A stretch of 64,000 bases of DNA from Bdellovibrionota bacterium (GCA_041740355.1 JBGSMD010000063.1:53002-117001), one strand, 5' to 3'. Shown: positions 3,491 to 48,309, numbered from the stretch's first letter. Numbers and translations: made by a program. The notes: generated from the sequence alone by a model not told the origin.

Positions 3491-4462
3491 TTAATCTCTG
3501 GAAACAGAAATTACATTTCGTGGTAAATACTTAGATGTCCAAGAACGTGTGATCGGACTTCCGGCTGGACCTTCCGTCACTTCTAAAGTTATTTCAATAG
3601 CTCTTATTTCCTGCCATTGTTGACTAGACGTAAATGACGAGAAGATTGTTCCATCTTGCATCTCAACTCGAACCTGAAAATCGGTGATATTATTAGCAAT
3701 ATTCATAAAGAAACTAGGGTCATTGGAATCCACTAACTGTAAGATGTTAGTTGTAGTATCGAGCTGAATTCTCCATTCTTCCAATAGGTAAACAGAAGCA
3801 TTAGCAGCTGAAAAATTATGTTGCCAGTTTCCACTACTGGCAGTCTTGAAAATACGGTATTGGTTGACCCCGGCAGATACTGACAAATTTTCTACGCTTT
3901 CAAAAGTTAAATATTCGCCAACAAGACTAGATGCGTCGAAAATATAGGCTTTTGCTTCTCCACTATCTTCGCCGGCTAAGTATGCCCCCCAAACATTAAA
4001 GTTATTGGCATTGACACTATGACCACAAGCCCCTGGCAATGGGGTCAGATTAGTGCTGACGTAAGAAAAGAATAAATTTCGGTCGGCACTAGTAGCTGTT
4101 AAATTTTGACATAATAATAAAACTTCTTCTAATAAATTTCTTCTTAAAGTTAAAACGTCTGGTGCTCCGCTAGCACCATTTTGTAATAGGAGTGCTGGGA
4201 AAACTGCTGGTAAATTTGCACCTAACAAACGTACCTCCGACGAAATCACGTCGAAAACTCCGCGTAATTCCTGATTGGCCCGAACATTCACTACGTCTTT
4301 GGCGTAAAGCTTTTTGAATGAAATAATTGAAGACAAAACTATCGAGCTGACCACTACTAAGATCGAGGTTGAAACTAAAATCTCGACTAAAGTCATCCCT
4401 TTAATTGAGTTTCGTGAGCACGCTTTCCACTTCATAAACTTCTTTACTATCATAAGTGACAA
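3491..4462 (-). CDS. Pseudopilin / minor pilin-like protein with prepilin-type N-terminal domain
   Basis: The N terminus ...SIKG|MTLVEILVSTSILVV matches the prepilin cleavage/methylation motif (G, then a hydrophobic helix with E at +5). It is the last gene of a three-gene minus-strand operon. The start is ambiguous (Met at 4462, 4453 or 4435). Confidence 0.6.
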   Translation of the reverse strand: MSLMIVKKFMKWKACSRNSIKGMTLVEILVSTSILVVVSSIVLSSIISFKKLYAKDVVNVRANQELRGVFDVISSEVRLLGANLPAVFPALLLQNGASGAPDVLTLRRNLLEEVLLLCQNLTATSADRNLFFSYVSTNLTPLPGACGHSVNANNFNVWGAYLAGEDSGEAKAYIFDASSLVGEYLTFESVENLSVSAGVNQYRIFKTASSGNWQHNFSAANASVYLLEEWRIQLDTTTNILQLVDSNDPSFFMNIANNITDFQVRVEMQDGTIFSSFTSSQQWQEIRAIEITLEVTEGPAGSPITRSWTSKYLPRNVISVSRD

Positions 4463-4826
4463 CTACTTTTAAATGTCTTGTTTCGCTAGTTGCTGTTGGA
4501 GGGCAATATGTCATATTACTACAATAAGTTACCACAACTTGATAAGTCCTAGCACCAAAAGTGATATTGATCGGTGCGTTAGAGGTAACAGTTGAAGGCA
4601 TAGTTGTTGTATTCTCCAATCTCATTTGGTCAAAAACTTGTTGTGCCGCAATCTGAGCTTCTGATTTAATTTCACCCAGTCTTAACATACTATTTGCTTG
4701 CATTACAGAAGTACTAAAAGTTGCCGAAACAATTCCAATAATTATTAAAGCAACCAATACTTCAATTAAGCTAAATCCTGAAGCACTGTTAAAATTTCTC
4801 CCTAAAAACTTTTGTTTTAAATTCAT
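4401..4826 (-). CDS. Pseudopilin / minor pilin-like protein
   Basis: The N terminus ...NSASG|FSLIEVLVALIIIGIV is a canonical prepilin-type N-terminal cleavage/methylation domain. Confidence 0.65.
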   Translation of the reverse strand: MNLKQKFLGRNFNSASGFSLIEVLVALIIIGIVSATFSTSVMQANSMLRLGEIKSEAQIAAQQVFDQMRLENTTTMPSTVTSNAPINITFGARTYQVVVTYCSNMTYCPPTATSETRHLKVVVTYDSKEVYEVESVLTKLN

Positions 4827-38296: not shown

Positions 38297-38788
38297 ATGA
38301 CATTTTCCAGAACGGATGAAAAATACCAGACTTTAGAGACTCACCTAAGCCAGGATCAGTATTTAATGGTACATCTAAACCCTACTTACCCTGGTGTTTT
38401 AATACCAGAGAATTTTCTTGCTTCACCAACTCTTACACTAAAGTTAAGTTATAATTTTCAAGGAGTTACCGTTATCACCCCAGAATTAATTACGGCAGAA
38501 CTTATGTTTAATGGTAAACATTTTTCCTGCCGAATTCCACTGGCAGCGATTTGGGGTTGCACAACTATTGCTGAGAAAAACTTCATTTGGCCAGAAAGTC
38601 TTTCAGCAAATTCCTATGAGAGTTTAGCCACAGAAATGGAAAGTATTAAAAAACCTAAGTTAGCTGTTAATAAACAAGAAGATATTTCTACACCCTCTTC
38701 TAATCTTAAGAAAATTGAATCTGATCCCAAGCAGGAGGAACCAGTAGCAGAAAATAAAAAACGTCCAAACCTCACTCGAATTAAATAA
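38297..38788 (+). CDS. sspB: ClpXP adaptor SspB-like (stringent starvation protein B)
   Basis: The N-terminal domain pattern (…MVHLNPTYPGVLIPE…TLKLS…F.G….C.IPL.AIWG) is followed by an acidic/low-complexity linker and a basic C-terminal tail, KKRPNLTRIK, resembling the ClpX-binding tail of SspB. Confidence 0.55.
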   Translation: MTFSRTDEKYQTLETHLSQDQYLMVHLNPTYPGVLIPENFLASPTLTLKLSYNFQGVTVITPELITAELMFNGKHFSCRIPLAAIWGCTTIAEKNFIWPESLSANSYESLATEMESIKKPKLAVNKQEDISTPSSNLKKIESDPKQEEPVAENKKRPNLTRIK

Positions 38789-38813: not shown

Positions 38814-41150
38814 ATGATTAATTTAAAAGTTTTGATTGGCTCAACTAAGATTAATTATAATCTTATATCTTTAATTCTAGCTCTTACTTGTGTCCATCTG
38901 AGCATTTCACAAATAATTTCTAGTGAACCAATAAGTGGCTGGGACACTCCAGGGCATCTCTACTTAACATATAAGATGCAAGAATTCTTAGGATTAGGAA
39001 CCTGGTTTGGCTATGATTCAAGCTGGTTCTCAGGCACAGCTCTCTTTGTGCTGTATCCACCACTAACATATATATTAATTAACATATTACATCTTATAAC
39101 TTTCTCTTCTGATCTAACTTATAGTTTTAACCTATTTATTTACCTTCAAGCTCAATTATTAGTAATAATTTTTTACTGGATAACAAAATATATTTTAGGT
39201 GTCGAATATCGGAAATATGTGATGTTGGTGCTCACCTTAATGTTACATACAAACATTATCTATTCGACCCACTTTATAGGATTAGCAGGATTATTTTACG
39301 CAGGCTTTCTATCAAATTGTACAGGGCTAATTCTATTCTTGCTGCTATTTGCACAAATCAGAAAACTGGAATTAAACATTATTAGCTCCTCTTATACTTC
39401 AATATTAATATTGAGCTTGATTTTACTTAACCATATAATCTCAGCAATATTTACTTTAATATTTATATCAATTTACTTAGCCCTTCAGGGAAATTCAAGG
39501 GTAGCGAAAAAATGGTTTGCTGTTATCGCAGTCGCTTCGCTGGTTGCTTCCCCTTATTACTGGATATTTATTGCCAATCTAGAATTTTCATCCTCAGAAG
39601 CTATCGGGCTTCACGGATCTTTTCCCGATCCCTTATTAGTCCTCTTTCCAAATCTTAATATTGAACATTTTGTGAATATGTTTAATGCCGAATTTAGCGA
39701 TACCTTCAGTTTTTTTAACTATAAAATCGAGTTGCCATTAATCATCAGTCAATTTCCATATTATGCGCTGATTGCTTTTTATTTTGGAATTAAAGGAAGT
39801 CTTCTAATTGTTAAAAGTCAAAAAAAACTACTGGGGTTTCTTTTTACAATTACTATCCTCTTCATATTCTTACCTCGCGCTTACTTAACAAACCTAACTA
39901 GCCTGACAATCCACTACTATCGCTTTACTGGCCTGCTGAGTTTCATGTTTATTTTTATAATTGCCTCTGGGATTAAACATTCTGACTACACACATAGCAA
40001 TTTGAAAAAAATACTCGGAGGTATATTTCTTGCTCTGATTTTACTACTAACAACGTCGTATCAGATGCTTTTCATTAGTGATTCTAGACATCAAGAATTT
40101 AAGCTACACCTGAGCGATTATCAAGGATATCAAAACCTAGATAAGGTTGCTAAATACCTTAAAGAGAACAATCTAACTGCAGGTGTTGCAATTGAGCAAA
40201 GCTATAATTTCCTCCTACAAGTCGGTTCCCTTCATGCCGTTTCATATCTTTTCCCGCATAAGTATAAAATCCCAATCAAGACTGGACTACTAGCTGAGTC
40301 AGCTTATTACTCGTCATTAATTAATCCCACTTTAGGTCTTCAAACAAATCACATGGTTTGGGGAAGTAAAGAATTATACCTTTTTAACTATTTTAATAAC
40401 CCAAAAAAAAATCCGAATTTATTTATTGAGAAGCTAAGGCTTTTAGGAGTAAAAGTATTAATCACAACAGATCGGGACAGCTTCAAAAAAATTAAAACCC
40501 TAACTCTTCAAAATCGTTTTCTAGTACTAAATAAAAAGATTGCTAATTATGCTATATTTGTTTTGCCAGAGTTGTCCCTAAAGAAAACCAACTCAATCAA
40601 GCCCCGATATCTATTTTTTGATTCAAAAGAATTAGCATTCAAAATGTTTTTTAGAGACTGGTTTGCTTATGATTCAACGATTAATTTTAACCTAGTATAC
40701 GATTACTTCAATTTGACTCAAAAAGATCCTAGCTTATTAAGTCAATTTTCAGGATTAGTCTTTTCCGCTGAGAATACAAATTCTTGTCTTAAGAATTACG
40801 AAAAGCTGAAGAGCTTGCAAGGTGATCTGAATGAAAAGTTAATCCCCTTAATTGATCAACAAAACCAGCAGCAAGAAAACCCAGCAATCCAAAAGCATAA
40901 GAGAGACTTTTATGATTTAGATATTATTTTCTTGGGTAAGAAGTGTTTTAAAGATCCGAACTGGAAAGTTAAGTGGATTAAAACAAATAATCCAGAAGAG
41001 AGAATGGCAAAACTAACAAAACTAGTTCAAAAAAATAAGCTAAAAATTCTCGTTAATAATAGACTGATTAATACGGAAGATACGTTTAGCCCACTAAATG
41101 GTAATAATTCATTTATCCAAACCCCGTTTTTTACTCTAAAGGTTAGGTAG
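38814..41150 (+). CDS. Large polytopic membrane protein (778 aa), GT-C/YfhO-like architecture
   Basis: The N-terminal ~430 aa hold about 13 or more hydrophobic helices, followed by a soluble ~340-aa C-terminal domain. The gene looks very AT-rich by eye. The family assignment is a guess from architecture only. Confidence 0.55.
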   Translation: MINLKVLIGSTKINYNLISLILALTCVHLSISQIISSEPISGWDTPGHLYLTYKMQEFLGLGTWFGYDSSWFSGTALFVLYPPLTYILINILHLITFSSDLTYSFNLFIYLQAQLLVIIFYWITKYILGVEYRKYVMLVLTLMLHTNIIYSTHFIGLAGLFYAGFLSNCTGLILFLLLFAQIRKLELNIISSSYTSILILSLILLNHIISAIFTLIFISIYLALQGNSRVAKKWFAVIAVASLVASPYYWIFIANLEFSSSEAIGLHGSFPDPLLVLFPNLNIEHFVNMFNAEFSDTFSFFNYKIELPLIISQFPYYALIAFYFGIKGSLLIVKSQKKLLGFLFTITILFIFLPRAYLTNLTSLTIHYYRFTGLLSFMFIFIIASGIKHSDYTHSNLKKILGGIFLALILLLTTSYQMLFISDSRHQEFKLHLSDYQGYQNLDKVAKYLKENNLTAGVAIEQSYNFLLQVGSLHAVSYLFPHKYKIPIKTGLLAESAYYSSLINPTLGLQTNHMVWGSKELYLFNYFNNPKKNPNLFIEKLRLLGVKVLITTDRDSFKKIKTLTLQNRFLVLNKKIANYAIFVLPELSLKKTNSIKPRYLFFDSKELAFKMFFRDWFAYDSTINFNLVYDYFNLTQKDPSLLSQFSGLVFSAENTNSCLKNYEKLKSLQGDLNEKLIPLIDQQNQQQENPAIQKHKRDFYDLDIIFLGKKCFKDPNWKVKWIKTNNPEERMAKLTKLVQKNKLKILVNNRLINTEDTFSPLNGNNSFIQTPFFTLKVR

Positions 41151-41153
41151 TAG

Positions 41154-41312
41154 CTAGTTATAATTCATTTTATCTGCTGTAAATTTTAATTTTTGTGAGC
41201 TAGCTCTTCCCATAGCAGTTACGGCAACGATGGTTACGATAGCGATTAACGCAACAAGTAGTCCATACTCAACTAATGATGCCCCTTTTTTATTTTTATT
41301 TATTTTTTTCAT
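41154..41312 (-). CDS. flp: Flp/Fap family type IVb pilin (52 aa; not in the ORF track)
   Basis: Hand translation gives MKKINKNKKG|ASLVEYGLLVALIAIVTIVAVTAMGRASSQKLKFTADKMNYN*. The G-x-x-x-x-EY motif plus a hydrophobic helix is the Flp signature. Confidence 0.7.
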   Translation of the reverse strand: MKKINKNKKGASLVEYGLLVALIAIVTIVAVTAMGRASSQKLKFTADKMNYN

Positions 41313-41363: not shown

Positions 41364-41960
41364 TTAAATATCTAATTTTTTGCAATTAAGATGGAAATTA
41401 TTAGGTAAATCTACAGTTAGTGTAAACTGATATGCGCCTGCTACTGCTATATTTAATTTAATATTCTGACTGTTTTCGCCATTGAAAAGTGTAAAATCTT
41501 GATTCAAAGTAAGATTAGATCCCTCTTGTTCGAATCCAAATACAAAAGGGCTAGTCCAATCTTGATCTGCGATTTTAAATTCATACTCTCCGGGAATTAA
41601 GGGTAATACTACTCGATAGTTATTCCCGCCAACTGGCAAAAGCTGATTATAAGCTCCCGCTTTCCAATTCTCAATTCGATTAACACGAAGAAACACATTA
41701 CGATCAATACTTTTTATTGGATTATTAGCACTATTTTCTTGCGTAATTGGATTAAAATAAACTACAACGGCCAATAATAAGATTACAAGAAAAATTATCC
41801 CTCCAAAAATCTTGGCATAAGATTCCATCTTTTTCCTAAACCTATATTGTTCTGCGAATTTTTTTAAATTAGCAGTGCTTCTTGATCGAACCGAATCTTG
41901 AATAACATCGCCCAGACCTAATTGATCCTGTCTTTTAAACGTTCTTTTATTAAATATCAT
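41364..41960 (-). CDS. Single-pass membrane protein with C-terminal beta-sandwich-like (CBM-like) domain
   Basis: It has one TM helix (IFGGIIFLVILLLAVVVYF). The C-terminal GEYEFKIADQDWTSPFVFG resembles carbohydrate-binding-module patterns. This is a weak call. Confidence 0.4.
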   Translation of the reverse strand: MIFNKRTFKRQDQLGLGDVIQDSVRSRSTANLKKFAEQYRFRKKMESYAKIFGGIIFLVILLLAVVVYFNPITQENSANNPIKSIDRNVFLRVNRIENWKAGAYNQLLPVGGNNYRVVLPLIPGEYEFKIADQDWTSPFVFGFEQEGSNLTLNQDFTLFNGENSQNIKLNIAVAGAYQFTLTVDLPNNFHLNCKKLDI

Positions 41961-42165
41961 AACTAGCTAAGTTTATCAGATAACGAATTAGAATTACAGA
42001 TAAGATCTACTGTAAAGTATCAAATATTATCGGTTTATTCGTTACAAGCTAATCACAACAACCACAGGGCCCCTAATGAAAGGGATCAGAATGACCTGAT
42101 TATTCAATCCATTTGAATTATCTTTACAATTAGAAAATGGATTAATTCGATACAAACGTTATGAA

Positions 42166-42194
42166 TTGTTAGCACTCTGGTTTAGGTGTATATT
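42166..42194 (+). promoter_or_regulatory. Candidate sigma-70-type promoter for the RT operon (TTGTTA-N17-TATATT)
   Basis: The hexamers were read directly from the sequence with a 17-nt spacer, about 80 nt upstream of the RT ATG. In AT-rich DNA such matches are common by chance. Confidence 0.25.
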
Positions 42195-42272
42195 TATATT
42201 TGGTTGGTTTGTGCAACCTATCGATTAGAACATATTAAAAAAGACAAACGGACCCAATCAGCAATCTTAGTA

Positions 42273-43604
42273 ATGAACCTACTGCAAAAACTCTCCTCCC
42301 GTGAAAACTTTTTAGCAATCCTTGATATTTTAAAAAGTAAAAAAAAATCAAAATCTTGGATTCTACAATCTGCCCCGATTGAAAAATCAATATCGCTTGC
42401 TTGGTGTATTTATAACCAAGACTTACTTATCAAGTATTATTTAAAAAACTTAAGAAATCATTCCTATCGCCCACAAGTAAGAATTAAAATGACTATTTTT
42501 ATAGATAAACAAAGGATTATCTATAATATTAACTGGGTTGATAAAATTATGGACTATGCCCTGACTAAACTACTTTTTGATGTCAGTGCGGAATTTTTCT
42601 CCGATCAATTATTTTCCTATCGCCAAGGATTTTCTAATAAAAAAGCAGTAAAAAGCCTCTGTAAATATATCAAGAATAATCAAGGCTCAGAGATCTACAT
42701 TGCCAAACGAGATATTAAATCATACTTCGATAATATTAATAGCGGGATTTTAACCTCACAAATTAAGGAGAAATGTGGCGAGCAAGATTCCTTTTTTTGG
42801 AAACTTTTAAGTAGTTTCTTACAACCAGAATATTATGATCCGGAGCTAGATCTTCAGGAGCAACTACTTCTAGGAATACCAACTGGATCTTGCATCTCTA
42901 ACTTTGCTGCGAATTTTTATTTGCACGACCTTGATCATTTAGCTGTAAACAATTTAGACTTTTATGTTCGCTATGGAGACGATATAATTTTTGCTGATCG
43001 GGATAAGGATAAGCTAAATCAGCTTCTTAATACTTATCAAGAAAAAATTTTGGAACGCGATCTTAAATTCCACCCAGACAAAGATCTATTCCTGAAAATC
43101 GGACCAACTTTAGCAAGCTCCAAAGATTCGCCCTATCAAAGCAAAAAAGTATTTGATTACCTAGGTTACCAAATTAGCGACGAAGGACTTATCTTCCTAA
43201 AGTCTTATAAATTTAAAAAACTAAAAAAGGATATTAAGAGTAGACTATTCAACTCCTATCGCACATATTACCGTGCTGGACTAAGTAAGGATCTGCAAAT
43301 GTCTAATCTGATTAAAGACCTAAATGGTACGATGCGAGATTTAAATTACTATAATCATTTCGCCGATCTTGTCCTATTCACGACTGATAAACCACGACTT
43401 AAGGAATTTGATATTTGGATTGCTCAAACAATTATTGCCATGACTCATAACTGTTCTCGCGCTAATGCGTTTGGGAAAATTTCCTACAGACAAATACGCG
43501 AGGCAGGTCTATTCTCGATTCTAAATTACAAGAATATTTATCCTAGAAGAAATGAAGTTCTCCGATCTACAAAAAATCTCCAAAGCAGATCAGCAACGAC
43601 GTAA
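42273..43604 (+). CDS. Reverse transcriptase (RNA-directed DNA polymerase), orphan/unclassified
   Basis: RT motifs in order: YRPQ...I....R.IY (1), D+I..YAL..LL (2), RQGFS...AV, KRDIKSYFDNI (3), LGIPTGSCISNFAANFYLHDLD (4), YVRYGDDIIF (5; YGDD at 42972-42983), FHPDKDLF (6), FDYLGYQI (7). A ~150-aa C-terminal extension follows. The ATG at 42273 is preferred over the GTG at 42186. Confidence 0.85.
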   Translation: MNLLQKLSSRENFLAILDILKSKKKSKSWILQSAPIEKSISLAWCIYNQDLLIKYYLKNLRNHSYRPQVRIKMTIFIDKQRIIYNINWVDKIMDYALTKLLFDVSAEFFSDQLFSYRQGFSNKKAVKSLCKYIKNNQGSEIYIAKRDIKSYFDNINSGILTSQIKEKCGEQDSFFWKLLSSFLQPEYYDPELDLQEQLLLGIPTGSCISNFAANFYLHDLDHLAVNNLDFYVRYGDDIIFADRDKDKLNQLLNTYQEKILERDLKFHPDKDLFLKIGPTLASSKDSPYQSKKVFDYLGYQISDEGLIFLKSYKFKKLKKDIKSRLFNSYRTYYRAGLSKDLQMSNLIKDLNGTMRDLNYYNHFADLVLFTTDKPRLKEFDIWIAQTIIAMTHNCSRANAFGKISYRQIREAGLFSILNYKNIYPRRNEVLRSTKNLQSRSATT

Positions 43605-45786
43605 TCTTGTCCGTAAAGGACTAGAGCAGTATGATCTCAGATCCTACTTACGCTACTTAAGGTATCGAATTAAATGGCCAATACTTTTTAAGTTACTTTC
43701 TCGACTAATTGTTATTGTTGAAGTGATTCTAATTCAACAACTATTTACTTATAATATTTTTGCAGACTTAACTCTCTATATTTTCATTATTTTTATCAGT
43801 CGAAGCGCCCTAAAAGGTATTACTCAATACTATCGTGTGCAACTAATGCCCCTAGCGACGGCAAAAAACATTTCTGGCCTAAATATCGCCCTAAGTAAGG
43901 CTCTGATCATAAACATCTTTTCTGCCTTTTTATTAGCCTTGGTCATTAGCATTCTTTGTCTACTCTTAGATTTATCGGATCAGTTAAACACTTACTTTAT
44001 AATTTCCTGGTGCTTATTAATCCCGCTAGAGCAAATTACCACGCAGCTTTGGAATACCGTCTATCTTAATACCCGACTAAGGCGAAGTGCCTTGATTACT
44101 TTCATTTGCCGCATGCTTCCAATCATTTCACTATTAGCTTTTAGCAGCTTGATTGGCCCCCTAAGTTACATTCTGGGTACATTTATGGCGAGATTATTAG
44201 AAAGTTTTTACTTATCGCGTGTCGCAATTTTAGCATTAAAGTTCAAATTTACATTAAAGAAGAAATCGAGCAGTTTGTTACAAGTTATCGGACAGTATTT
44301 TAAAAATCAAAAGGCGCGCCAATACCTTTACTTTAATGCCATCCTACCCTGTTATTTTTTGGGTCTTGGATTAATCATCTTTGAACGGGGAGTCGGTACC
44401 TGGATTACAAATATTATTTATTTTTTTATTTTAAATTTTGCAGTTTTTTTTACTACACAAATTTCACGCTCAATTCAATTTGACATCTACTCCTGCTTTA
44501 AAAAAGGGCAGGTAAAAAAAGCAACGTTCTTAGGCAAAAGAATTGTAAAATATACTTTGAACTTTGCTGTAATTCTAGCAGCTAGCTTTATCTATTTACT
44601 CTTAAATTCCAAAAGGTTTTACCTTTTCATACCAATTAGCTTAGAATATTTTCTATTAATCTTACCCTTGGCAGTAATTGCTCAAACGTTTTTTTTTTCG
44701 ATCTATGCCCAAATCCAATCCCTAGCAATCGATCGTTATTTCACCAAGCTAATCTTCATTAGCTTCCTCCTAATAGGCTTACCAATTCAGTTCCTTCTAT
44801 TTCATTATTACCTCGCAAATCTACAAGCGATCTACTGGACTGAAATCCTTCTCTTTGTGTTTGTAGGTACACTATTATATTTAAATTTGAACTTTAATCT
44901 CAGTCCCTTTTTAATAAAGTATATCAAAAGAGAGCGGAAGGCTCTGCCCCTGTGCCAACCAACTGCACTCCAATTAGAGCTCCGAACTAAATATATCAAA
45001 ACTGGCTCAGCTTATCTTTACATATTATCTTATTATGAGCGGGATGCTTTCTGGGAACGCATTAAGTATTCACTTCCCCAAACAAAAGATTTCTTAATTA
45101 CCCGGTACTCTGCTGGGCTCTTCCTGCTTTCATCTCATCAACCACTGACGGATCTTGATTTTCGCAACCTAAGCTTTGTTGCCAAAAAGCAAATAGATTT
45201 AAGCCAAGAGCTACTGCAGACTTTACTGGATATTTATACTTTTTACTATTCTCTAGAATTTAGAAATAGCTCATTCCAAAAAATACGTAATAAGTTCTAT
45301 CTTAATAGATCCATCAAAGAAGAATTGTATCAGTTAGCGGAATTAAAGAGGCCAGTAGATCAAATAATATCAGAGTTGCTTGGAGCTCCTAGGATCGTCT
45401 TCAAAAATGGTAAAATTTCTTGTTTGGGCAAAGTCAGTAATAAACTTTATAATTTTGCTTTGAACCAATATTTTTATCCTGACAATAACTTGGCTCCCGC
45501 AATTCAAGGATCCCAATTAACAATCAGAATTAATAATACGGAAACAATTAGTTTCGACTTAAGGCACTTGAATAGTTACCTAATTGGACAAGTTAATAAA
45601 AAGATTTTTTTCCTCAATCAATATTATTATTTTAAGAATATTATTGATCCCCATTTGCCATATGCAGCTAGCATTCAAGATTATTTAATAGCACGGAGAC
45701 TGATTCATAAACATACCCGTCGCTGTAAAACGAGAAAGGCTGACCATTTAGCAGATCTCAATTTTTATAATCATAAATTAGTATGA
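43552..45786 (+). CDS. Polytopic (~12 TM) membrane protein with ~290-aa soluble C-terminal domain; RT-operon gene 2
   Basis: About 12 hydrophobic helices were counted by eye between aa ~40 and ~450 (MOP/MATE-flippase-like spacing). No motif was recognised in the C-terminal domain. It overlaps the RT gene by 53 nt and the PLD gene by 4 nt. Confidence 0.65.
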   Translation: MKFSDLQKISKADQQRRNLVRKGLEQYDLRSYLRYLRYRIKWPILFKLLSRLIVIVEVILIQQLFTYNIFADLTLYIFIIFISRSALKGITQYYRVQLMPLATAKNISGLNIALSKALIINIFSAFLLALVISILCLLLDLSDQLNTYFIISWCLLIPLEQITTQLWNTVYLNTRLRRSALITFICRMLPIISLLAFSSLIGPLSYILGTFMARLLESFYLSRVAILALKFKFTLKKKSSSLLQVIGQYFKNQKARQYLYFNAILPCYFLGLGLIIFERGVGTWITNIIYFFILNFAVFFTTQISRSIQFDIYSCFKKGQVKKATFLGKRIVKYTLNFAVILAASFIYLLLNSKRFYLFIPISLEYFLLILPLAVIAQTFFFSIYAQIQSLAIDRYFTKLIFISFLLIGLPIQFLLFHYYLANLQAIYWTEILLFVFVGTLLYLNLNFNLSPFLIKYIKRERKALPLCQPTALQLELRTKYIKTGSAYLYILSYYERDAFWERIKYSLPQTKDFLITRYSAGLFLLSSHQPLTDLDFRNLSFVAKKQIDLSQELLQTLLDIYTFYYSLEFRNSSFQKIRNKFYLNRSIKEELYQLAELKRPVDQIISELLGAPRIVFKNGKISCLGKVSNKLYNFALNQYFYPDNNLAPAIQGSQLTIRINNTETISFDLRHLNSYLIGQVNKKIFFLNQYYYFKNIIDPHLPYAASIQDYLIARRLIHKHTRRCKTRKADHLADLNFYNHKLV

Positions 45787-47513
45787 AATCCAAAAGTTTA
45801 ATCTACTTTATTTTCATTTTACTAAGCTTAATTATTGGACTATCGCTCCACGCTGAGAGAATCGAAATACCTCTTTACGTTCTACGAAAAGCAATTACTT
45901 GTTCTAGTGTTCAAGAGAAAACATTGGAAGTTGTTTTCCAAAACAAGTCTTATTTGATCGCATTTGACCATATTTACAGTACTCCCGTTATTAATGCAGG
46001 TTTAGTCTGTCAACGTTTGATCCGCTACTTAAAAGCAGCGCCTTCGCCCAATTTAATCATCCCTATCTCCAAAAAATATACCAAGTTCGGCCATGATATT
46101 TATGTCGATGAATCAGGATTTTTAGAAAAAGCTTGCCTAGAACAAGGGCTTTGTAAGCGAAACATCTTGGATACTTTTAAGCCCAAAAAAATACTCCGTG
46201 AATGTCATGGGAAAATTACACTAAACGGCTTATTGGCAAAATCTCGTCCCAAAATTCCTGGCTATCAAACAAAAATCATTAAAGATGTTACAATTAAAAT
46301 TCACCCATTTCATCCATTTATCAATATTCTAAATGAATACCTTCAAGATCCAATTTTAAAGGAAATTCATGCCTCTACTATGTCAATTGGTAATCAAGCC
46401 CTAGACGATATTTCTGCCAGCACGCAAAGCTACAATAAAAAGGCTGTAATTAATTATGATGCCGGAATTTCATTGTTCAATTCTCAACAAGGCCAAATTG
46501 CTAAGGCTATTACTAAGTCACCTAAAGTTCATTTTTTACCAATGACCAGTGGTAATAATTTTAGCCAATTTTATCACATCAAATTTATTGCTAGCCCACA
46601 AACTAACAAGTCAATGTTGGCCTCAATGAATTTAGCCTCAGTAGATCGAACAGCATATCTCGACCTAAATTTTTTCTTTGAGGATCCTACTATTCGCGAT
46701 GAGTTTTTATCCATCTCAAATAATAATAATCGAAGATTTTGTGATTATTCTGAAGATTATGACTGCTTAGCAAATTTTTATGATGAAAGATCAAAATCCC
46801 ATATTCCACTGGTAATAAATAGAAGTTGTCCGACAAGCAATACCGAAACTACTATCAAAAGATCTGGTTACTTTGTAAACTCCGAAGATGATGATCTCAA
46901 ACAATTTGTGATAAACTTTATTAATCAAGCAAAACAAGAAATCATTGTAACTTCCTACAAGTTAACAGAAAGAGCCATTGCCAAGGCCTTATTAAACAAG
47001 CAGCAAGAAGGGCTTAAAGTTCACGCCATGTTAGCCTTTAAATCTCCCGCATTGGGCGAATTGAAAAGCCATTTCTACTCGGGGGAAGTTGTTAAGGAAG
47101 AGTATCCTTTTCCTCACATGAAAATTATTATTATCGATCGCCGACTAATGCTATTTGGAACTGCGAACTTCACGATTAATGCTTTAAATAATACAACTGA
47201 ATTAATTGGAGTTACTGATAATCAGCAAGCAATTAAAACAGCGTTAGATCATGTCGCAGTTTTTACACAGTCCAAAGATCTGGCCTTAAGTAAAAACATT
47301 TCCAATACTCCTAAGCAGAAAAATTATGTAGCAGTGACGAGCTCTACGCAGATCAAACCAGTGAATTTACCTTTTACTAAACCGCTTGAGCAGAAATGGT
47401 TATCAAACTACCGAGAGGTAACAAAGGAAGGCGAAAAATTATTAGATAAGTGTGATTTAAGGCACCTTATTTTTATAACTAAGGCAACTTATTTGGAATG
47501 TCTTAAAAAATAA
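45783..47513 (+). CDS. PLD-superfamily (HKD) enzyme with N-terminal signal peptide/anchor; RT-operon gene 3
   Basis: The canonical HKD motif HMKIIIIDRRLMLFGTANFT (HxKxxxxD-x6-GTxN) lies at 47115-47168. A degenerate first motif, HIKFIASP...ASMN, lies at 46575-46641. The N terminus MKSKSLIYFIFILLSLIIGLSLHA is signal-like. Confidence 0.8.
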   Translation: MKSKSLIYFIFILLSLIIGLSLHAERIEIPLYVLRKAITCSSVQEKTLEVVFQNKSYLIAFDHIYSTPVINAGLVCQRLIRYLKAAPSPNLIIPISKKYTKFGHDIYVDESGFLEKACLEQGLCKRNILDTFKPKKILRECHGKITLNGLLAKSRPKIPGYQTKIIKDVTIKIHPFHPFINILNEYLQDPILKEIHASTMSIGNQALDDISASTQSYNKKAVINYDAGISLFNSQQGQIAKAITKSPKVHFLPMTSGNNFSQFYHIKFIASPQTNKSMLASMNLASVDRTAYLDLNFFFEDPTIRDEFLSISNNNNRRFCDYSEDYDCLANFYDERSKSHIPLVINRSCPTSNTETTIKRSGYFVNSEDDDLKQFVINFINQAKQEIIVTSYKLTERAIAKALLNKQQEGLKVHAMLAFKSPALGELKSHFYSGEVVKEEYPFPHMKIIIIDRRLMLFGTANFTINALNNTTELIGVTDNQQAIKTALDHVAVFTQSKDLALSKNISNTPKQKNYVAVTSSTQIKPVNLPFTKPLEQKWLSNYREVTKEGEKLLDKCDLRHLIFITKATYLECLKK

Positions 47514-47518
47514 AAGAA

Positions 47519-47650
47519 AAAAGAGTTGGGCGGAATTTAACGCTTACCTGCTCTATAATATCTGCCGTCAGAACCTGCACCTTTCTCCGAAGGCGTATTT
47601 ACAGATCCCCCTTGCGTTTGGAGAAGCCCGAAGGCGACAACCCAACTCTT
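47519..47650. ncRNA. Candidate structured element: GC-rich ~110-nt core closed by a 10-bp inverted repeat (AAGAGTTGGG...CCCAACTCTT)
   Basis: The inverted repeat was read directly. On the minus strand the core contains GCC-UUCG-GGC and a second UUCG, plus UUCUCC/GGAGAA pairing. The minus strand is followed by a U-rich tract. The strand, and whether it is transcribed at all, are unknown. Confidence 0.3.
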
Positions 47651-47730
47651 AATTTAATATTACCATAGCAATTTAACGATAAACAATGATTTATTTTTAA
47701 AGTTCTAAGAAAGGAATGTAATTAAAAGTT

Positions 47731-48309
47731 TTAGTTCGACTCAACCTTTTGCATTTTCTTCATGTGGATTTGATAAAGCTCTTCTTTGCCATAATCTTCT
47801 AACTCACGTGAGCGACTCATTAAGGTTTCTTTATCTTCAATATAAAGTCTTGGATCCGGATGGTGGACTTCGGGGTGAAGTCCCGTGTCCATTCGAATGG
47901 CATCTACTGGGCAGGCTTCCACACAAAAACCACAATAGATACAAAGCAAAGTATCAATCTCATATCGTCTCGGGAACTTTTCAATTTCAGGATCATCGTG
48001 CTCTGCCGCTTCAATGTAAATACACTTTGCCGGACAAGCAGTTGCACAAAGAAAACAGGAGGTACATTTAACACTACCTTCCGATGTAAGAGTTAAACGA
48101 TGACGACCCCGATATCGCTCTGGGTAATCACGGCGCTCATTGGGATATTGAATCGCAACATCAGCAGCAATATTTTTGGCGAGACCAACTGTATGTAAGA
48201 CATGTAAGGAAAAATTCTTAGCAAGCTTGGTGAAAGTGAAGGCAACACCCTTAGCTACCTCAATCAGGTAGATCTTTTCCCAAAAATTCATTTCTTCACG
48301 ACGTCTCAT
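47731..48309 (-). CDS. nuoI: NADH-quinone oxidoreductase subunit I (2x[4Fe-4S] ferredoxin)
   Basis: CTSCFLCATACP and CIYCGFCVEACP are present, with NuoI-type N- and C-terminal extensions (…YPERYRGRH.L…). Confidence 0.85.
   Translation of the reverse strand: MRRREEMNFWEKIYLIEVAKGVAFTFTKLAKNFSLHVLHTVGLAKNIAADVAIQYPNERRDYPERYRGRHRLTLTSEGSVKCTSCFLCATACPAKCIYIEAAEHDDPEIEKFPRRYEIDTLLCIYCGFCVEACPVDAIRMDTGLHPEVHHPDPRLYIEDKETLMSRSRELEDYGKEELYQIHMKKMQKVESN

Follow-up and report, generated by a model that had tools for sequence, protein, structure and literature searches.

What might be the function of a reverse transcriptase (RT) that is encoded in a single operon with a polytopic membrane protein and an envelope-directed enzyme of the phospholipase D (PLD) superfamily? 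Such an operon occupies positions 42166-47513 on the plus strand of a 64,000-nt stretch of DNA, referred to here as the window, from a Bdellovibrionota bacterium (GCA_041740355.1 JBGSMD010000063.1:53002-117001). An initial annotation, made from the sequence alone, had described three packed co-directional genes, and the open reading frames (ORFs) bear this out, with a 53-nt overlap between the RT and membrane frames and an ATGA overlap between the membrane and PLD genes. Just 3′ of the last gene we found a conserved structured element (47521-47650), missed by that annotation, which probably makes the locus a non-coding RNA (ncRNA)-dependent RT system like DRT9 and DRT10. We tentatively read the locus as a four-part module (candidate ncRNA, RT, a membrane protein with the fold of the MOP superfamily, and PLD) that may represent an undescribed branch of the ncRNA-dependent group-II-like/Class-2-UG RTs, and for which a role in conflict appears the most likely. 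Among the PADLOC, NCBIfam, Pfam and Rfam models and the literature that we searched, none describes an RT that has a MOP-fold protein and an envelope-directed PLD as partners, in line with what the initial annotation had suspected.

The RT gene (42273-43604, + strand) encodes 443 aa from the ATG at 42273, the start used in public gene calls of the window RT and its homologues; the longest ORF opens at a GTG at 42186 (42186-43604). RVT_1 is the sole Pfam domain found (E 1.4e-19), with no fused known accessory domain, and the catalytic aspartates D147, D236 and D237, the last two within a YGDD box (aa 234-237, nt 42972-42983, +), are unchanged in 45 of 45 family members. RT_UG26 is the top PADLOC model for all 45 (best E 5e-37), with near end-to-end alignment; its score for the window RT, 112 bits, is equalled by the generic RT model (112) and followed by the Cas1-fused RT (95), UG17 (88) and Drt9 (84) models, with retron and Abi models far below. 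NCBIfam returned 107 bits against a cut-off of 300 for the group II RT/maturase model TIGR04416, and 34 bits against a cut-off of 235 for the retron St85 model. When a profile of the 45 family members was used to search the PDB, the GsI-IIC group II RT (111 bits), Cas6-RT-Cas1 (108) and 9ioa (96) ranked highest, with G2L4 (62), DRT2 (54), retrons (at most 44) and AbiK (39.5) at the lower end.

The top PDB and NCBIfam similarities are to group II, G2L and CRISPR-associated RTs, and motif 2a is group-II-like (S-x-x-x-A-V). Motif 4, which the initial annotation had described as lacking PQG, indeed does not read PQG but carries PTG in its place, so that this position is filled and not absent. The annotated absence of a maturase X/endonuclease domain holds for the endonuclease (En) domain, of which Pfam finds no trace in the RT, but not for the rest: because the post-palm region aligns with the group II RT/maturase model up to residue 395, a thumb/X-like region is present. 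Unlike the group II, G2L and CRISPR RTs, the window locus has no intron RNA, En domain or Cas genes, and its 107 bits fall below the cut-off of 300. Taken together, the comparisons support a genuine RT that lies, as annotated and now also checked against PADLOC, outside the group II introns, retrons, diversity-generating retroelements (DGRs) and every UG/DRT model of that database. From the PADLOC, NCBIfam and PDB profile scores it is predicted to belong to the group-II-like/Class-2-UG neighbourhood and to no defined group within it, a placement by hidden Markov model (HMM) scores (UG26 112, UG17 88, Drt9 84, group II intron 107-111) and not by a reference phylogeny.

How widely is this RT distributed, and with what partners? 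Among 5.8 billion clusters, a word-indexed search with the RT recovered no more than five close homologues. Scanning one genome per species with an RT profile, we found 46 family loci (handles of the form L002 below) in 46 of 185,579 species genomes, a minimum figure because the scan requires exact peptide patterns. Their hosts are Bdellovibrionota/Oligoflexia, Myxococcota, Coxiellaceae/Legionellales, Rickettsiales and one Anammoxibacter metagenome-assembled genome (MAG), so that the family is rare and patchy over phyla. At about 40 of 42 assessable loci, a gene for a membrane protein of 560-806 aa and 6-11 transmembrane (TM) helices stands immediately 3′ of the RT or divergently upstream of it (the latter in L007 and L012), and the two frames overlap in many loci. 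Profile comparison shows these proteins to be homologous to the second gene of the window, and an exhaustive HMMER search with the latter among 1.84 billion representatives returned only 26 relatives, almost all of 640-780 aa. Because the pairing is so nearly constant and the partners are homologous, the conserved core of the system is the RT plus the membrane protein, to which the PLD is often but not always added. Divergence runs in step across the three proteins (identities of 71/52/31% for the RT, 58/39/25% for the membrane protein and 62/48/27% for the PLD). The initial annotation had made its case depend in part on the three genes being found together elsewhere; the trio does recur in other genomes, once as a fusion, and the case therefore stands.

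Several further observations concern copy number and sampling. Tandem RT-membrane modules occur in L015 (3040-6119 and 8125-11350), and two paralogous RT-membrane copies (L014 and L031) lie within one MAG. The sample SRR28170465 contains the window's PLD gene on contig L009 together with two other distinct modules, L056 and L061. Metagenome scans with the ncRNA core pattern and with the RT profile gave no matches, though L003 is itself from a JGI metagenome.

The membrane gene (43552-45786, +) encodes 744 aa, and its MKFS... start is kept in homologues. Twelve helices are predicted in its N-terminal domain (43552-44901, aa 1-450), with 24 Lys and Arg residues in cytoplasmic loops against two in periplasmic loops, a distribution that gives the protein an N-in/C-in topology. 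Since it follows the twelfth TM helix of an N-in protein, the C-terminal alpha/beta domain of ~280 aa (44935-45786, +) is placed in the cytoplasm. An AlphaFold model built with 24 homologues reached a pLDDT of 86.4 and a pTM of 0.86 and is confident to about residue 720, whereas an earlier model from two sequences had a pLDDT of only 36. The model shows the 12-TM fold of the MOP superfamily (MATE/Wzx/MurJ), with its two six-helix bundles, and Foldseek against the PDB matched it to MATE transporters (E 7e-7, TM-score to target up to 0.72). Modelling thus supports the annotated flippase-like protein, which we would describe as flippase/MATE-like by fold.

By sequence, the protein stands apart from these transporters. 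No Pfam, NCBIfam, PADLOC or PHROG model matches it; in Pfam and NCBIfam, the MatE, Polysacc_synt and MurJ families match neither this protein nor five relatives. The C-terminal domain, which the initial annotation could not recognise, likewise has no PDB or Pfam sequence match. In contrast to MATE, Wzx and MurJ, the window protein therefore combines a missing sequence-family match with an extra orphan domain of ~280 aa and is always encoded beside an RT. Four residues are unchanged among its homologues (E57, R175, P190 and D311) and four are nearly so (R39, R95, W167 and Y171). This conservation suggests a functional transporter or receptor rather than a simple pore.

The third gene (45783-47513, +) encodes 576 aa with a hydrophobic N-terminal signal/anchor (aa 1-24) and two HKD-type motifs, H265-I-K267 (nt 46575-46583) and H445-M-K447 (HxK(x)4D, nt 47115-47123, then G...N), which are kept in an alignment with eight homologues. 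Pfam PLDc_2 matches the second lobe (aa 377-486, E 2.4e-16). Of ten cysteines, Cys118, Cys141 and Cys573 are unchanged in the same eight homologues. The annotated two-lobed PLD with an N-terminal signal/anchor is thus supported, as is its direction to the envelope, where the Nuc and NucT enzymes are also located. The best matches of its second lobe are to the Nuc/NucT/Zucchini/DrmC enzymes, with which it shares HxK(x)4D and a downstream G-x-N: PADLOC DrmC gave E 5.7e-13, and a PDB search gave 34 bits for NucT and 26 bits for MitoPLD/Zucchini. In contrast to these enzymes, the window PLD has two HKD-type lobes in 576 aa and about 230 extra N-terminal residues, and it scores far below the equivalog cut-offs. 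Membership in the Nuc/NucT equivalogs was rejected, as the NCBIfam NucT models reach 31-42 bits against cut-offs of 211-351.

Thirteen distinct loci have the PLD adjoining the RT-membrane pair, in four arrangements. It is co-directional and downstream in the window and in L002, L003, L006, L056, L060, L014, L018, L019 and L031, convergent in L059 and divergent in L061; in P0037, found in two independent assemblies, it is fused to the C-terminus of the membrane protein through one hydrophobic segment. The order of parts in this fusion fits a cytoplasmic domain followed by a TM segment and a PLD predicted to lie in the periplasm. At other family loci the linked third gene often encodes a signal-peptide protein (peptidase S9, GH18 or an F-box-associated (FBA) domain protein), or there is none.

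Does the module include an RNA? Over the 160 nt that follow the PLD stop codon, the window and L002 share 81% identity (E 3e-36), and L003 keeps part of this region. This identity exceeds that of the coding regions (the window and L002 proteins are 58-71% identical), and the gene downstream differs from locus to locus (NuoI, GT87 or HNH). A candidate structured ncRNA of ~130 nt (47521-47650, +) was called here on conservation, compensatory pairs, folding and GC content. Its 10-bp closing stem, AAGAGUUGGG/CCCAACUCUU, is paired throughout in each of the three sequences, L003 contributing three compensatory pairs. Inside the stem lie a variable hairpin, a core that is invariant (GCCGUCAGAACCUGCACCU, UCUCC...GGAGA) and a small hairpin, the last swapped for a longer one in L003. 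Alignment gaps in the element are not multiples of three, which is incompatible with coding. Its GC content is 0.50 vs 0.34 for the operon, and RNAfold z-scores are -2.4, -3.1 and -4.1 on the plus strand vs -1.1 on the minus strand. An Rfam search of the locus gave no match, and neither a promoter nor a terminator was resolved around the element. The intergenic region upstream of the RT (312 nt, 41961-42272), considered as a site for the ncRNA, shows no conservation in L002 or L003.

Structured elements also accompany the RT in more distant members of the family. A hairpin of the form RRRY-YGCG-GYYY lies within 350 nt upstream of the RT in 19 of 48 family RTs (background 0.011 per 410 nt), and closing stems of at least 10 bp, spanning 110-180 nt and ending just before the RT, occur in many members. 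The enrichment of closing stems alone is modest (10 of 43 upstream regions vs 9.6% of control regions, p 0.008), and the YGCG hairpin is the stronger family signal. In the Coxiellaceae, the element is closed by a 12-bp stem and includes a hairpin with compensatory changes; L006 and L059 have a common closing stem with one compensatory change. Within the 1.76 Mb searched, a 12-nt motif, GCCGU[C/G]AGAAC, is confined to the window/L002 element and that of L059, an ncRNA candidate that lies upstream of the RT. Since MAFFT/RNAalifold could not align the window-type element with those of L006, L059 and L061, homology between them is indicated solely by this motif and a similar closing stem. No element in the family loci had an Rfam match. 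The structured elements of distant members travel with the RT and not with the PLD, and we conclude from these comparisons that the RT family is associated with a candidate ncRNA, whose gene in the window's clade would lie at the 3′ end of the operon.

Two individual elements have features of their own. The L059 candidate, 5′ of the RT, contains a long CU-repeat tract at ~2495-2525 (CUCUCUCUCUCCUCCUGCUCUCUCUCU) that recalls the homopolymer/repeat templates of DRT9 and DRT10. L057 carries the membrane-PLD fusion downstream of its RT; the element 5′ of that RT (4395-4544) has a 14-bp closing stem enclosing a possible pseudoknot, in which CCUCCCCUU/AAGGGGAGG cross GAGCAUUC/GAAUGCUC.

Which characterised system does this most resemble? 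DRT2, DRT9 and DRT10 are the characterised anti-phage members of the ncRNA-dependent RTs, DRT9 consisting of a UG28 RT and an ncRNA. The window RT, like those of DRT9 and DRT10, is a stand-alone enzyme without a fused known domain; UG17 and Drt9 are among its top models (88 and 84 bits), and beside it lies a structured candidate ncRNA of ~130 nt built on a long central/closing stem with several hairpins. For Class 2 UG RTs in general, the templates are ncRNAs (PMC12632851). In DRT10, a UG17 RT is accompanied by an ncRNA of 137 nt and a SLATT membrane protein, with complementary DNA (cDNA) proposed to control the membrane effector (PMC12632851), and the window module likewise has an obligatory membrane-protein partner. 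Because DRT10 is the closest known architecture, we read the locus as a variant of the ncRNA-dependent Class-2-UG/DRT-like systems.

The differences are as clear. Unlike in DRT9 and DRT10, the window RT stays far below family-level score, a PLD predicted to be periplasmic is added, the candidate ncRNA comes after the last gene and not upstream, and the family is not found in defence islands. The partner of DRT10 is a SLATT protein of 2-3 TM helices, whereas that of the window RT is a 744-aa, 12-TM MOP-fold protein with a cytoplasmic domain; membership in DRT10 (UG17) was rejected on this partner and on the 88 bits of the UG17 model. UG26, itself a Class 2 UG/Abi group, was rejected as well: the 112 bits of the window RT on its 398-position model equal the generic RT score, and the partners are a membrane protein and a PLD, neither of which is described for UG26, whose one reported partner is, in some cases, a Vsr endonuclease (Mestre et al. 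2022, PMC9226505).

A mechanism that would join the four parts can be proposed by analogy with DRT9 and DRT10. The ncRNA would be bound by the RT and part of it copied into DNA, and the membrane protein would then read the cDNA, or an RT-cDNA complex, with its cytoplasmic C-terminal domain. It would couple this signal across the inner membrane, through gating, recruitment or transport, to the phosphodiesterase activity of a periplasmic PLD. The role of such a cascade would most likely lie in conflict, as abortive infection or as the exclusion of invading nucleic acid. In this scheme the genes, their folds, catalytic motifs and topology, their linkage and the conserved element with its compensatory changes are observed, whereas ncRNA transcription, cDNA synthesis, signalling or transport, and the role are inferred.

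Several observations weigh against a conflict system of this kind. At ~40 loci, most of the 142 neighbour proteins have housekeeping roles (such as enolase, fumarase, S1, topoisomerase and menaquinone synthesis), with no defence-island signal around those loci beyond a few generic PADLOC singletons, and phage, plasmid and viral-contig collections yielded no copies of the family. Intracellular lineages (Coxiellaceae, Rickettsiales) are among the hosts. It would be unusual for abortive infection to act through an extracytoplasmic effector, and the membrane partner, with its invariant buried charged residues, looks like a working transporter and not like a simple pore-forming toxin. To these may be added that nhmmer with the window ncRNA returned just three distinct sequences, on which this candidate is based, and that the RT is placed by HMM scores rather than by phylogeny. 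The abortive-infection hypothesis of the initial annotation, which we still regard as possible, is weakened by the housekeeping neighbours and the missing defence-island signal.

Some of the same observations suit a pathway of export instead of immunity, the main rival and a possible if rather unlikely explanation, in which DNA or a nucleotide-derived polymer made by the RT would be moved over the inner membrane by the MOP-fold protein and trimmed, released or transferred by the PLD. A lipid or protein primer could be involved, and the product could have a surface, matrix, signalling or prey/host-directed role. Such a pathway would agree with the strong fold match to a superfamily of exporters and flippases, with TM-domain Arg, Glu and Asp residues whose conservation suggests a bound charged substrate, and with the retention of both catalytic HxK motifs in a PLD closest to Nuc-type nucleases; it would also agree with housekeeping neighbours outside defence islands, with predatory or intracellular hosts, and with the frequency of another exported third gene (peptidase S9, GH18, FBA) where the PLD is missing. 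However, we know of no MOP transporter that moves nucleic acid, the characterised RT relatives act in defence, a rare and patchy spread is unexpected for a physiological pathway, and the exported product is itself a supposition.

We consider it doubtful that the locus holds a domesticated group-II-like RT with a cellular role in nucleic-acid metabolism, sharing its operon by chance and followed by a 3′-UTR, terminator or other regulatory element. The equal scores of the group II intron RT and UG models would be expected of such an enzyme, a role in repair has been proposed for G2L4, and a 3′ element known from just three sequences, with no promoter or terminator resolved around it, could be regulatory. 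Chance is nevertheless a poor account of RT-membrane adjacency at ~40 loci over phyla, with overlapping frames, and of structured elements beside the RT in many distant members, moving with the RT and not with the PLD; G2L4 itself scores just 62 bits. A selfish or diversifying retroelement (group II intron, classical retron or DGR) is very improbable indeed. There is an RT, and the ncRNA closing stem resembles the a1/a2 repeats of retrons in form, but each class was rejected in turn. For a group II intron, TIGR04416 scores 107 against a cut-off of 300, the En domain is missing, and Rfam finds neither the intron RNA, whose absence had been annotated by eye, nor any other match; for a retron, St85 scores 34 against 235 and PDB retron RTs at most 44 bits. 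The DGR fails on the template repeat/variable repeat pair: as annotated, none is present in 41900-47800, where we found just short repeats of ~70% identity. The locus is moreover syntenic with housekeeping genes of a related genome.

The window and L002 both have the operon between an SspB-like gene and NuoI, in a shared neighbourhood but not at the same position within it. The SspB-like protein (38297-38788, +, 163 aa, weak similarity with E 0.003) has a conserved counterpart beside the topoisomerase genes of L002. It is followed in the window by a gene for a 778-aa polytopic membrane protein (38814-41150, +) with no Pfam, NCBIfam or PADLOC match; its 758-aa counterpart in L002 lies beside a GT87-like protein on the opposite side of the RT operon, which shows a local rearrangement between the two genomes. 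A 198-aa protein with one TM helix and weak CBM48/X25-like (glycogen- or pullulan-binding) similarity is encoded at 41364-41960 (-), and the same gene adjoins NuoI in L002. Shortly before the operon there is a gene for a 52-aa Flp/Fap-type pilin (…GASLVEYGLL…; 41154-41312, -). The module also has Flp/Tad genes nearby in L002 (Flp), in L057 (TadE) and in L003, where Flp directly precedes the RT; this proximity may be coincidence among related genomes. In the Coxiellaceae, a tRNA gene stands ~90 nt upstream of the candidate ncRNA-RT-membrane module (L025, 7555-7628, and its equivalent in L046); tRNA genes are classic sites of island insertion.

Composition and control signals add little. A promoter-like site (TTGTTA-17-TATATT, 42166-42194, +) lies ~80 nt 5′ of the likely RT start, but it comes from a consensus scan in which such sites were no more frequent than in shuffled sequence, so that the evidence for a promoter is weak. 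The initial annotation had taken the AT-richness of the segment as a sign of accessory origin, which our figures do not sustain: the operon has a GC content of 0.342 vs 0.367 for the window, 8% of equal-sized segments are equally low, and a bias this mild tells little about origin.

Retrons, DRT2, DRT9 and DRT10 each revealed an unexpected use of reverse transcription. The partner pair described here, a transporter-fold protein with an orphan cytoplasmic domain and a nuclease-like PLD predicted to face the periplasm, is new in what was searched, and it would therefore physically link cytoplasmic reverse transcription to chemistry beyond the inner membrane. The candidate ncRNA offers a direct experimental handle, since sequence reads could be compared with it as a template and the effect of its deletion could be assayed. 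MOP-type transporters are otherwise known for drugs and lipid-linked glycans; were the locus instead a dedicated DNA pathway from cytoplasm to envelope, a quite unlikely reading in which ncRNA-templated DNA made by the RT would be exported by the MOP-type protein and cut by the periplasmic PLD or transferred by it onto an acceptor, predatory and intracellular bacteria would gain an RT-made extracellular or surface DNA product. For a family that lies outside defence islands in predatory and intracellular lineages, the module may thus represent either a new effector logic for RT-based immunity or a non-immune use of cDNA.

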